A model generated the notes under the pieces. It saw only the letters and a list, made by a program, of their open reading frames with translations. It was not told where the DNA came from and ran no database searches. Positions 491-18,758 of a stretch of DNA of 64,000 nucleotides are shown here, in pieces. The translations under genes were made by a program, and so were the position numbers. The number at the start of each line of letters is the position of its first letter. Position 1 is the first letter of the stretch. This DNA is from Batkoa obscura (lineage: Eukaryota), in NCBI GenBank assembly GCA_030770535.1, contig JASVEC010000020.1:434001-498000 (forward strand). Reading direction: 5' to 3'.

Positions 491-1276
491 TTAATAATTT
501 TGTTCAATAAAGGACTTGAACATAAATAACTTAGTATAGACCCCTGGGAAATTCTTTTGAGCACATCCATGACCCCATGAAGTAATGCCAACAAGAGTAG
601 TTTTTCCTGCTTCAACTTTGAAGATTGGACCTCCAGAATCACCTTGACAAGCATCTTTAGCTCCTTCTGGATAACCAGCACAGAACATTACTGTATCATT
701 GACTATTTTGTTAACTGATTTATAAGAGTCAACACATTTCTTAGTATCATAAGTAGGCACTTTTAATTCTAGTAAAACATTACTTCCTTTACCACCTGCT
801 GAAGTAGCACCCCAACCAACAGTAACCAATAATTGATTTGTTGATTTAGCAAATGTACCATCATCAATAACAAAAGTATCTTTTTGAGCTAAGCCCCAAG
901 TACCATCAATTTTCCAAATAGCTACATCATTTAAATCAAACTTATTGGCATCATAATCTGGATGAGCTTTACGATCAATCACTTGATATCTCTTACCTTG
1001 TTCTTTATCTTCAGTAAGAGATATATCATGACGATGGAAACTGGCACTCCAATTCTTGGTATCATAAACAGTACAGTGAGCAGCGGTGATGATCAAATTG
1101 TTTTTGTAAGCCATTCCACCACATAAATGACGTTTTAAGAAATCTAAACTTAACATCCATGGATATTTAAATTTAGGTGATACTTCATATCCTCCAATAA
1201 TTCTTGCAGGTGGTAGTACATCGGCTGCTTGAGATAAAGTGACTAATGCTGAGAGAGCTACTAATTTCAAATTCAT
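491..1276 (-). CDS. Secreted trypsin-like serine protease (S1A), copy 1
   Basis: Intronless 261 aa ORF with signal peptide, PPAR/IIGG activation site, TAAHC, NDVAI, and KDACQGDSGGP (S1-pocket Asp indicates trypsin specificity). Confidence 0.97.
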   Translation of the reverse strand: MNLKLVALSALVTLSQAADVLPPARIIGGYEVSPKFKYPWMLSLDFLKRHLCGGMAYKNNLIITAAHCTVYDTKNWSASFHRHDISLTEDKEQGKRYQVIDRKAHPDYDANKFDLNDVAIWKIDGTWGLAQKDTFVIDDGTFAKSTNQLLVTVGWGATSAGGKGSNVLLELKVPTYDTKKCVDSYKSVNKIVNDTVMFCAGYPEGAKDACQGDSGGPIFKVEAGKTTLVGITSWGHGCAQKNFPGVYTKLFMFKSFIEQNY

Positions 1277-1406: not shown

Positions 1407-2756
1407 GCTTTTATTTTGGATTGTCATGAATTGTGAGAATGTGGAAATTAATTTTATGCAAATTACTACAAAATTTAATAATTTTATTATTTACTATATA
1501 TAATATACACATTTATCAAAACTTAGAAATAAAAATAATAGTTCTGTTTAAGATACATATCTCTTCTGAATAAGGATGAATTTTAAGAGACCTATTTTAG
1601 CGTAAAGTTAGATTTATTTACTTTTAAAGTATCTTTACTATAGCCTTTACTATAATACTATTGAGTGTCACCCTACAAATAACAAATAGCTTTTTCTACT
1701 TAAAAGGGTAATCGCTTAATCTTTATATTAATAAATTAATTCTGATAACTAAACTAGTGGCTTATAAGGCAAAACATTGCGTTAGGTACTATTCCTATCA
1801 TTTATATAGAATTCAATCTTTATTTCTATACATCTGTATAAAATTTCAAAAACATAATCAGGTTTATAAAGATTGTTTTTAATTTCAACTACTTTGTAGT
1901 TGCTTTTTTAGTTTTACTTGCCAAATAGTTATAAAAGTTTTTAGAAAGACAGAGCATATATCAAAACCGCCTTGAATTGTTAATTCTTTATGTATCTTTT
2001 TTATAACCTAATTTCATAGAATTCATAAATTGAACCCATAATATTATACTATTTTTTACGTTTTAACAAAATGTAAAAAACTTAATGTGATCATAGTTTT
2101 TTTAAGAATGCTATAAATTTTTTGAATTTTAAACTACCTAAAAATGATCAAAACGAAAATAAGATAGGATTTTAATACAATTTGAATTTAGACAAATTAG
2201 CTGTAATTTACTTTCAAATAGTAAAAGGTTAGCTTTATCCTGTATGAAATTTTTATTTTTTTACAAAAAGTTATTCTTTTATCTCAGAAACTATATGTAT
2301 CCCATTAAGTTGTATTATTTGATTCTTTATGCTCTGTCAGAATATGGGCTCAAGCCTTGTGTTTAAATTTAGAAATTTACTTTATGTCTAGTCATATTAT
2401 TATGTTATGCTTGTATCATTAAAGACACATCTTAAAAAGTAAAATTCCAAGAACTGATTATAGATAATGAGTCTTAATACATATTCTTCGAGAACAACTT
2501 TATTGTTAGGATTAAATTAATTAGGGTTATACAGTCTTACTGGTAAATGCTATTGGCTTATACTAACCTTTTACCTGTATTTTAAAACATATCTATATTT
2601 AAATTAGTAAATTAATTTAGTTAACATAAAACACTTAAAGAAATAGACTGAACAGTTTGATACTTAAAATGATAATTCGTTATTAACTCCAATGTAAACT
2701 GGAATAGATATTATAATACTAATTTTAATATCAATTACAAATATTAACTAAAAAGC

Positions 2757-14291: not shown

Positions 14292-16104
14292 AAGAAAGTT
14301 AAGTACCTCCTAACTCTTTCTTTAAAGAAAAATTGCTCAATCGGTTGTTTATTTTTAACTTATAAAAGCAAAATGCATTTATTGTTACAACCAATCAAAC
14401 CTTATGTTTAGCAGGATCACATGGTTTTAGTTAAGTTTAAATATTTTATTTTGTTTATATACCAGATTTGTTAAAAGCTATTAAATTTTTTAATAACATT
14501 TATTTCGCTATTAATAGTACCTTATTTTATTTCGATTCAATATATTTGTATATTTGTATACGTATAAATCTATTTGAAGATTGAATCCAAATTAGAATTA
14601 TTATTCAATTAGAACAAGAATAGGGTTAAAATGATCTGAAATAAATTGTATTATAAAAAAATTCAAAAACATTAAAATTAAATAAACAGCATTTAAACAT
14701 TTAAAACTTATCAGCTATGAAAACTAGCATTTAACCTACTTAAAATTCATATTATTATAAAATAATGTGTGTAAAAAACAAGGTTGGAAAGCTGAACTCC
14801 TCTTAAATTTCTACCCAAAAAAAATGCCTTAAGCTTAAATTTAAATATTTCTCCACTAGTTTTATAATTTTTTTGTGATAAAATAATAAAAGAGGGTTAA
14901 AAAATAAAAAACAAAAAAAATGTTGAGACAATATTTAGTTCCATAACTATATTGAATTGGCTTTTATAATTATTTTTAAGCTAAATCTGTTTTTATTTTG
15001 ACCCACATAAATTATTCTAACAGCCATTTCTTTATAAATTATGTTATCTATACTATTTAACAGAAGATGAAGAAATGAGAGTTTAGCTTATATTGACTAT
15101 TAAACAAACTTTAACAACACAAAAGTTTAATGCCAACCTAATACTTTAGTTCCTTTAGAAAAGAAGAGTTTTTTACACCATATCAAAAAAATTACCATCA
15201 CAAATATAGTTTAACTTAAGAAGCATACAAAGTTATAAAATTTTTCTAACTTTAATTGTGTATTAATTTGTTGCTTGTTATCACTCACTATTATACAATT
15301 CAATATCTCTTAGCTATCTTTAGGCTAATTAATTGCTTATTAACAAATTACTAAAAAAGGTGATTGCAGTGGGATACAAGCTTTTTTACTTTGTAACCAA
15401 AAACTGAATGAAAGACAAAATTTAAGGTGGTAAATCAGACTCCATATTAAAAATTACAGAAGCTTTTATTAGTATGATCTTTAGCAAATGAAAAGTATCA
15501 TTAGTTAAGTTTGACATATATTACTAGTTTGATTTGTAATATTAAAAGTAATGATAGCGTTATACTTCACTACTTTCATTCAAAAATTAATTTTATTAAA
15601 TAATACTATAAACAAACAAATTGAATTAATCGAATTAACGGAGCTAAACTAAAAAAAACTAGTTTGGTGTTCCATACAGTATAAATAATGTTCTTATTTT
15701 CTTTTATTCTTTTAGTACTAATAATAATATAATAAATAGCAGATAAAGTTATAAAAAAAAGTAGTAAAAAAGAGAGGATTTTTACCCTTAAAAAATAAAT
15801 AACTTATTGAAAAGTAAGTTTATAATCGTTAAAATTAGGGTATAATTAACTTTAAGAGGGATAAAAATTAATTTTGATATTGGTAAAACTCTCAGATAAG
15901 GAATATTAAGAAAGTATGCCTAAAGAATGAGTAAAGGTAAGGGGTATGTCTAAATGGTATTAATATGAATTGAAGCTATATACTATATTGACTTACAAAA
16001 GTTAAGGTGTTTAATACGTTAAGGCAAAATGGTTAAGGTATAAATTATACCGATTAAAAAACTAGCTCAAGTCTCACTTTAAAATTTGAAATTAATTGAA
16101 CTAT

Positions 16105-17029
16105 TTAAAGCGCTAAGCATTTGCGTGACTTTTTACCAGGTCGATTAATCGACCCTATGCGTTTAGGGGGCTCATTAAATCCTTGATCCGCTCTTATCAA
16201 TCGTACTACTTGATAAAACGCCATCTCTACATTGATGCATGCTTTAGCACTAGATTCTATAAATTCACAGTTTAAGCGTCTTGCCATAGTCACTCCTTCT
16301 TCACGTGCTACTTCCCTTTCAGTTGCTTTATCTGCTTTGTTACCAACCAAAATCATAGGTGAAAATTCATTGTCCTTTACTCTAAGAATCTGTTCATGAT
16401 AACGTTCTACTCGTTCAAAAGTGGAACGAGAAGTGATAGAATATACTAACAAAAATCCTTCACCATCTCTAATTTCAATTTTAATTCGTTATTTTTTTGT
16501 CTAAACCTATTATATACCTAATCCATTGATCTCTTAACGCAGTATATTCCTCTTTAAAGTTGTTAGTTTATTTTAGAGGTACATAAATTTCAATTTTACC
16601 TTGTCCGGCAGTATCTAAAACCTCTAATACACATGCTTGATCATCAATTACAACTTGCTTTCGGTAAGAATCTTCAATCGTTGGATCATATGTCTAAACA
16701 ATATGAGTAAATAACTTAAAAAACCTAAAAAGAAGGAGTAACTACCTCTAAAGAAAAGTAATGGAAGTTATAATTTAAATAAATAAAACCAAGTTAAATT
16801 AATTTGATGCTATTTTGTAATTATCTTACCGACGAAATGATTTAAACAAAGCTATTAAAAAGGGTTAAAGCTAGGCTTAGATGAGTTAAAAAATTAGTTA
16901 CCTGAATCGTTAACGCCGTCTAAATAAGATAATATAAAAAAGAAATTAGAATCTTAATAATCCAAATTTCGATTAATTTACCTTCCCAACACCACCATCA
17001 CCGAGTACTACTATTTTATATAACAACAT
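16105..17029 (-). CDS. ras2: Ras GTPase (fungal Ras2/RasB type), 7 coding exons
   Basis: Exons 16983-17029, 16902-16919, 16830-16851, 16746-16747, 16600-16693, 16518-16551 and 16105-16468 give [57 protein letters not shown] and CAAX CLAL. Confidence 0.93.
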
Positions 17030-18758
17030 CTATTCAAGAATTAATATATTTGATCAAAAAGAGAGTTGCTTGTATTATATAATTGAGTTAAATGATATAT
17101 CTTTCTAAATTTAATTCTCAAATAAATACACTTACTTTTAAAAGCAATAATTAAAATGGAAAGTTAAATTGGATAAATAAACAACTCTTAACTAATTAAT
17201 ATACAAGTTGAAAAAAGTGAGAGTTCGCTTACGAGGATAAAAGGGTTTTAAAAATTATGGTAATTAAAAGTAGGTGATTAAACGTTTAGCTTGACTTTCC
17301 CTTTAAAAAAAGTTGACTTTTACTTTTACTTGGTTTAAAAGGAGAATTTCTTTTTTTAATCGCTATCTACCAATCAAATTAAAATATTCCAAATTCAGTT
17401 CATAATTAACTGATATCACCTTCGAAGTGAACAATTTCAAAGCAGCTGACTATAAAGGTACTCCACTTTGATTGGGGATCAATTGCACAAGTTGCAATTT
17501 TAACTAGTATTTTTTCAAAAAAAAATAAGAATTAGGGTTTAAGTTTTGGTTGCAAAAATTCGATATGAGCATTTATTCAAAGTTTAACAAGAAGTAGCTC
17601 TGTCTTCTAATTATTAAATTGAGGTTTTAGGTTATAAAAGACCTAAAATTAGATTCAATAAGCTAGAATGATTGGTGGAAGTAAAAAGTAGAACCATTTT
17701 CAAGCTCTAAGTTAGAATTGTAAATGAAACCTAAACTACACCATATTTTTTTAATGTGCTTGATGAAATCCTTAAATTTAATTGATCACTATTGTCGAAT
17801 TCAAAATAAATTTTGTTATATAATGAAAGTATCATGGTAAAAAAAGATAGTAAACTTTCCATTTATTAAATTCGGTAAATTAATTCCAATTATTAACAGT
17901 AAATTTGAGCTAAACTTGAACTTTATAAGATCAATAGATTTGTTAATTAAATTTTTTGATTATATGGTAGTGTTACTAATTATTAATTACTAATAAATTA
18001 AAGTTAGCTTATTAAGTATGATTAAATACTCGAAACATTTGTTTTTTAAAAAACAAATATAAGCCTTAACAAAGCAAGAGTTTACTTAATAGTATGCAAG
18101 ACATGGGTTAAATTTATAAAATAAACATATTAATAAATTAGAATTGTTTTGTAAGATAAACAAACAGTTTATTAATCCGAAAATTAAACTTAATAAACAA
18201 AATATTGAAAAAAATTAAGCTCCCCTCAATTATTATAAAGTCTTTAAGTTTATTCGCTTAAGTAAGCTCAAAGGATTCTTAAACAATTGGCGGAATTAAA
18301 TACCTAGCCATAATGAAACAAGCCATGGGTAAACTTGAAGGAAATTTATTTGATTCTTTAAACTCCTCTTTCTTTTAAAAACTTACTAAATCCGAGGTGA
18401 CAAGGTTTTAAGCTTGGTATTTTATTGTAATATTAATAATAATTTATTGTCAAAGTTTTATGAGAAACTAGGTTTCAGTTTATAAATGAATTGCCAGCCG
18501 GATTTAATGTTAGCTCATCCGATTAATCGTGGTTTAAATGTTTTAAACTATTTTTAAATTTGATTATGCTTCGAGTATAAAAAGTAAACGTTGAAATTCC
18601 TATAATTGGAGAGTCAAACTAATTTAATATAAGTTAAAACTTATAAGAAATTAATAATAAAATCAAGTTACAAGTAAATAATATTGAAATATACAACTAT
18701 AATAATAAACTGTAATACCAATATACTGACAAATAAAATTAGACAAAAAACTAATAGT

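Follow-up and report, generated by a model that had tools for sequence, protein, structure and literature searches.

A two-base exon in the Ras2 gene of distant fungi that is likely constitutive and probably freed from its downstream intron first

Can an exon of only two bases be a fixed part of a gene and, if so, how are the introns on either side of it removed? The question is raised by a fungal Ras2 gene on the minus strand of the window, a 64,000-nt stretch of a Batkoa obscura contig (JASVEC010000020.1, positions 434,001 to 498,000), where two bases, AG at positions 16746 to 16747, stand between introns of 82 and 52 nt. A preliminary description of this DNA had proposed them as a micro-exon and had added that skipping might serve as an on/off control. 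Our analysis of assembled contigs and orthologues gives us good confidence that the AG is a real two-base exon of Ras2, common to distant fungi and likely constitutive, and that its introns are likely removed sequentially, usually the downstream one first. It is likely a fixed part of the gene and not an on/off switch.

RESULTS

Structure of the Ras2 gene

The gene has seven coding exons and a product of 193 amino acids that is identical to the annotated protein KAI9292954.1 of Neoconidiobolus thromboides FSU 785, so that a public gene model already contains the junction discussed here. All coordinates refer to the minus strand. The start codon lies immediately 3' of a 106-nt intron of the 5' untranslated region (17030 to 17135, ending in ..TAG|ATG), whose join (17029/17136) was found in all eight runs used as transcript evidence. 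Coding exon 1 (16982 to 17029, 48 nt) carries the P-loop GDGGVGK, while exon 2 (16902 to 16919, 18 nt), exon 5 (16600 to 16693, 94 nt, starting with ACA TAT GAT), and exon 6 (16518 to 16551, 34 nt) were delimited by sequence and contig joins. The last coding exon (16105 to 16468) includes the stop codon and encodes a protein end, CLAL, that we take to be CaaX-like. Exon 3 (16830 to 16851, 22 nt) encodes LCLNHFV plus the first base of Glu30 and ends in TTC GTC G. Bases 2 and 3 of that codon (G|AG) are provided by the AG exon, on the evidence of sequence, the mature join, half-spliced contigs, and orthologues.

The AG exon is flanked upstream by intron 3 (16748 to 16829, 82 nt, phase 1, GTAAGA..TTTAG with a pyrimidine-rich 3' end) and downstream by intron 4 (16694 to 16745, 52 nt, phase 0, GTAGTT..TTTAG), the latter seen in contigs as a join at 16693/16746 with CT..AC ends. 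All six introns of the coding region (62, 50, 82, 52, 48, and 49 nt) are of the GT-AG type, and the same six were recovered by a spliced aligner without a micro-exon rule, using Radiomyces Ras2 as the guide. Thus, the position of the AG, its 82- and 52-nt GT-AG introns, and the tiny neighboring exons (18, 22, and 34 nt) are exactly as first described.

With the range of switch I that we presume, alignment to Ras structures places Glu30 at its start. The P-loop, switch I, and DTAGQ motifs of fungal Ras2 small GTPases are all kept. The product clusters with sequences bearing the Ras2 name, with 65 to 85% identity to the aligned Ras2 proteins of early-diverging fungi, and has nothing unusual about it. 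The computed product stops at 31 amino acids if the exon is skipped, which agrees with the earlier statement that skipping destroys the protein, at 35 if intron 3 is kept, and at 36 if intron 4 is kept.

Transcript evidence for the two-base exon

We used eight runs (X1 to X8) from three studies, in the form of assembled contigs only; their RNA nature is a tool guess, no run being on record as RNA, and the contigs were counted as transcripts because they join across GT-AG introns. All eight runs contained the two bases in a mature join. In X1, X2, X3, X4, and X5 this join was seen directly, while in X6 to X8, which represent a diverged strain or a relative, it shows as 24 letters that stand between exon 2 and exon 5. 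Several candidate joins were rejected. We left a join of depth 8.4 in X8, with 11 other letters, out of the count of mature joins, and the 16706/16982 "joint" in X6 to X8 is mature mRNA whose alignment overran 13 bases into intron 4. Joints at 16552/16832, 16853/16977, and 16853/16982 (with GAATAGT.. between), together with loose ends at 16517 and 16659, appear to derive from a paralogous Ras transcript, as the loose ends suggest.

The sequence GTC GAG ACA, by which the preliminary description would have the exon checked in cDNA, is therefore there in the mature join. However, this check cannot separate a micro-exon from a single 134-nt noncanonical GT..TT intron, because the exon and the acceptor of intron 4 both read AG and the two structures give an identical mRNA. 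With such an intron there would be no micro-exon, the AG would come from just before the next exon, and read mapping does place the mature join in this way (16695/16830). The ambiguity is settled by half-spliced contigs and by orthologues with AA in place of AG. In X1, X4, and X6, which belong to three different studies, contigs that keep intron 3 use the internal donor of the AG exon itself (16745 joined to 16693) and the true acceptor, which excludes a single noncanonical intron; the mature form in turn implies use of the acceptor at 16748. The 134-nt intron would also leave unexplained the AA orthologues, locus L015 (C+AG), and the internal YAG-AR-GT found in 86 of the 88 listed loci with a visible phase-1 donor, compared with 2.5% in resampled intervals. 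In the window itself, a site of this type is expected by chance in the 136-nt interval with a frequency of 3.5% (5000 resamples). We give this reading practically no credence.

The same applies to the idea that the AG is a signal and not an exon, belonging either to a recursive splice site of zero length or to a nested twin intron (stwintron), both of which are described classes. In its favor, the two introns almost adjoin and are removed in sequence. Nevertheless, two bases remain in the mRNA, which a zero-nucleotide recursive site would not leave, and each intron possesses its full donor and acceptor in the unspliced sequence, with AA tolerated between them. A stwintron has an internal intron that interrupts a donor, branch point, or acceptor, while here two exonic bases stand between intact introns. 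We regard this explanation as hardly tenable. What the contigs and the sequence present is an ultra-short (1 to 3 nt) internal coding exon, with two complete canonical introns, its bases in the mature transcript, and its own splice sites in use. Conserved as AG or AA, the pair acts like the last two positions of a Glu codon. Taken together, spliced contigs in eight of eight runs, half-spliced contigs in three of eight, and the orthologues described below bear out the exon as real.

Variation was also seen in the untranslated parts of the gene. A second intron of the 5' untranslated region (17187 to 17232, 46 nt) was removed from X5 and X8 contigs and read through in those of other runs, i.e., it is alternatively spliced. 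A 47-nt GT-AG intron at 15950 to 15996, 108 nt past the stop codon, was spliced in X3 and X5 and probably lies in an extended 3' untranslated region of the Ras gene. Between 16022 and 16147, X3 and X5 contained two forms, set apart by five substitutions and a one-base insertion; these are two alleles, copies, or strains.

Order of intron removal

Partially spliced intermediates, which the preliminary description had recommended looking for, were found in three of the eight runs, one from each study, always with intron 4 out and intron 3 kept. The depth of these contigs compared with that of the mature form was 1115 versus 1898 in X1, 140 versus 122 in X4, and 12.9 versus 126 in X6, giving retained shares that are rough because contig depth is a poor measure. 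The half-spliced contig of X6 retains introns 1, 2, and 3; in X1, the form retaining introns 1 and 2 had a depth of just 69 versus 2079. The intron-3-kept form was not seen in the contigs of X2, X3, X5, X7, and X8.

The reverse intermediate, with intron 3 out and intron 4 kept, was absent from the contigs of all eight runs, as was any other form retaining intron 4, and no contig entered intron 4 in any of four runs (the bin from 16699 to 16745 was empty in X1, X2, X3, and X5). Forms spliced only downstream thus outnumber those spliced only upstream (three of eight runs versus none of eight), with the caveat that missing forms count for little as evidence because contigs drop rare ones. An accumulating intermediate need not be the main path either, since removing the upstream intron first would leave the same picture if the second step were fast.

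Orthologues and evolution

One metagenome scan yielded at least 120 loci, and the counts given here are not frequencies in nature. The collection pattern barred G at six bases before the Thr codon, so that intron-less genes were undersampled and the gene of the window was itself missed. Among the 120 loci listed, 90 carry the two-base exon (84 by script and 6 by eye, 4 of the latter being cut at the 5' side and one having a GC donor). The exon bases are AG in 78 of these listed loci and AA, which is synonymous, in 12. The exon-bearing loci listed are mostly from Agaricomycetes, but some are Mortierella-like and one is chytrid-like. A single intron after Glu30, with the upstream one lacking, was found in 16 of the 120 and no intron at the site in 4, while none of those listed had the upstream intron only. 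Ten were set aside (five other Ras-family genes, two non-Ras, one truncated, the degenerate L038, and L049). At 90% identity, the listed loci form 49 clusters, of which 34 are purely exon bearing and 1 is mixed.

A quick tree was built from 40 named proteins and 37 of the 120 listed loci. In it, loci that carry the exon paired with Russula, Thelephora, Boletus/Suillus, Hysterangium, and Entomortierella with SH-aLRT values of 95 to 100. Locus L111 (16% GC) fell beside the chytrids, where it is weakly placed, as is a Glomeromycota-like locus. The single-intron loci need three changes on this tree: in the ascomycete clade, in L058 plus L032 among the basidiomycete rows, and in the long-branched L086. 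The spread of exon-bearing loci across the tree, together with the Zoopagomycota gene of the window, suggests that both introns existed early in fungal evolution, the upstream one having been lost several times.

Several loci deserve mention in their own right. Single-intron loci (L058, L032, L086, and the L001/L071 groups; 16 listed) always keep the downstream intron, which is the opposite of the outcome expected from reverse transcription of the observed intermediate. Eight loci (L001, L017, L019, L027, L039, L047, L078, and L090) form an ascomycete-like lineage whose introns after Glu30 measure just 35 to 44 nt and whose nearest named proteins are about 60% identical. L049, an AT-rich, divergent, and possibly Glomeromycota-like Ras2, has the six intron positions of the window upstream of its match (864 to 893, minus strand) and an exon that is likely TG (Val), so that the structure may persist even where the Glu does not. 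In the Mortierella-like L093, the downstream donor (upstream of position 307) is apparently GC and not GT. L038 (match 1501 to 1530, minus strand) is a degenerate Ras2 with a stop codon, in which decay seems to have reached the acceptor ahead of AA and further splice sites.

The preliminary description also held that gene predictors usually miss such exons. This is common in other genomes, although the public model KAI9292954.1 has the junction right. Among Ras2-like models from source-named genome proteins, counted as representatives of 90%-identity clusters, in which wrong models are overrepresented and some rows are divergent paralogues, FVETYD was intact in 18 of 42 from Agaricomycetes and 33 of 87 from early-diverging fungi. 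A break at the AG-exon junction was found in 17 and 23 of them, respectively, a break elsewhere near the junction in 4 and 13, and a lacking N terminus in 3 and 18. The exon therefore matters for annotation, as automatic Ras2 models are often wrong at this junction.

Branch point of the upstream intron

To compare branch points, we took 40 loci differing by more than 8% from the 81 listed with a full next exon; 39 of the 40 were of the basidiomycete type. Hexamer weights were set by hand after the branch-point consensus, while both windows and cutoff were fixed following a first look at the data. The upstream intron was longer than the others (median of 73 nt versus 53 to 56), and its best branch-point-like hexamer lay at a median of 33 nt from the intron end, compared with 14 nt in a pair of control introns from these genes. 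At 8 to 21 nt from the 3' end, a hexamer was present in 7 of 40 upstream introns (6.2 in shuffles) versus 47 of 76 controls, while at 23 to 40 nt the values were 24 of 40 (7.7 in shuffles) versus 12 of 76. A set at 85% identity behaved similarly (5 of 29 versus 34 of 54 at 8 to 21 nt; 15 of 29 versus 9 of 54 at 23 to 40 nt). The P values of these comparisons overstate certainty because the weights were hand-set, the windows were post hoc, and the loci are kin. The downstream intron also had some far sites (12 of 40 versus 6.6 in shuffles), and in intron 3 of the window the signal is ambiguous, the best hexamer lying 51 nt from the end in AT-rich DNA. For the potato invertase mini-exon, the branch point is reportedly set far off and accompanied by a U-rich tract.

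A mechanism can be proposed in which two spliceosomes would be unable to work 2 nt apart, so that the 52-nt intron would have to be cut first. Its removal would fuse the AG to the next exon, creating a normal exon of 96 nt, and the 82-nt intron would then be cut at the first YAG, before the GAG two bases further on. The upstream intron would be the slow step and might accumulate as a retained intron, while the far-set branch point predicted in mushroom-type orthologues may keep recognition of this intron clear of the neighboring donor. In this scheme the exon and the intermediate have been observed, whereas steric exclusion, the part played by the branch point, and the constitutive use of the exon are what we infer.

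Skipping and intron retention

The suggestion that the exon is alternatively skipped to turn Ras2 off would fit the skipped product of just 31 amino acids, as well as the presence, once intron 4 is gone, of a second AG two bases further along that might be chosen in error. Nevertheless, the 136-nt skip join was missing from the contigs of all eight runs, which may drop rare forms, and the 12 AA loci have no second AG. We consider a skipping switch very unlikely, and this part of the preliminary description found no support. The unproductive form that the contigs do contain is the one with the upstream intron retained, with its product of 35 amino acids.

Retention itself could act as a regulated throttle, with a variable share of Ras2 transcripts held unproductive and released or destroyed according to conditions. 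By contig depth, the retained share was about 54% in X4, 37% in X1, and 9% in X6, with none seen in X2, X3, X5, X7, and X8, and X4 was unlike three other runs of its study. The retained form would stop at 35 amino acids, the arrangement and the odd position of the branch point are conserved, and a regulated fungal microexon has been reported in Trichoderma Xlr2 (PMC11121469). On the other hand, a spread of this kind can also arise from contig depth and from the removal of bubbles by the assembler, plant data on such retention are read in PMC8831610 as slow posttranscriptional splicing, and the upstream intron is lacking in ascomycete-type and some basidiomycete loci. We therefore think a regulated throttle rather improbable, although clearly less so than skipping. 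A broader claim is that the exon and its far-set branch point, by making the upstream intron the slow step, form a splicing throttle conserved across fungal phyla: depending on conditions, as much as about half of the Ras2 mRNA would be kept unproductive by the retained intron. This seems to us equally doubtful. If true, it would set the dose of a central switch of fungal growth and development and add a splicing-level control to fungal Ras signaling.

DISCUSSION

The favored reading is a constitutive two-base exon whose downstream intron usually leaves first. Exon size is not what is new here, as 57 two-base exons in 50 genes are described in Coprinopsis cinerea (PMC12230235). The internal exons of 1 to 3 nt of that species are, like the exon of the window, fungal and critical for the reading frame. 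Neither the main text of that paper (0 hits) nor its text supplements mention Ras; its large tables and annotation files may do so, and since C. cinerea is an Agaricomycete, the Ras2 exon may well be among the 57. Cross-phylum conservation, splicing order, and branch-point analysis, which are treated here, were not found in those text parts. Within a literature search that left older subscription papers (fungal ras cloning) outside, we found no paper on the two-base exon of Ras2. What is added here for this exon is RNA evidence, the order of splicing, and the shift of the branch point. The Ras2 exon thus offers a natural, highly expressed, and widespread test case for how the spliceosome handles an exon of two bases, with matched species that have AG, have AA, or are without the upstream intron, an abundant intermediate, and a branch-point signature that can be mutated in a model mushroom.

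The order of removal has parallels elsewhere. In plant microexons, the downstream intron is described as removed first and the upstream one as detained (PMC8831610), in the 9-nt mini-exon of potato invertase the second intron is out before the first (as cited in PMC4674806), and a downstream-first order is given for most SRRM4-dependent microexons (PMC10250204). Plants also have 1-nt exons in APC11 and VPS55, along with other microexons, that are constitutive, deeply conserved, and lost by intron loss in some lineages (PMC4674806, PMC8831610). In plants, however, APC11 has been tested by mutation and fractionation data exist (PMC4674806, PMC8831610), while the Ras2 exon is known from contigs and sequence. 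The potato invertase exon differs in having nine bases, in being in frame, and in having signals mapped by mutation (as cited in PMC4674806), those of Ras2 being predicted.

Among fungi, the microexon of Trichoderma virens Xlr2 also sits in a regulatory gene, but it is included alternatively according to the glucose level (PMC11121469), unlike the Ras2 exon, for which the contigs hold no skipped form. The closest likeness in the way of discovery is the 1-nt exon of Fusarium CYP621A (PMC12940212), which is likewise fungal, splits a conserved codon, was found by frame logic, is supported by reads, and had been missed by annotation. As described there, that exon consists of one base in one genus, whereas the Ras2 exon has two bases, occurs in several phyla, and has been caught in half-spliced form.
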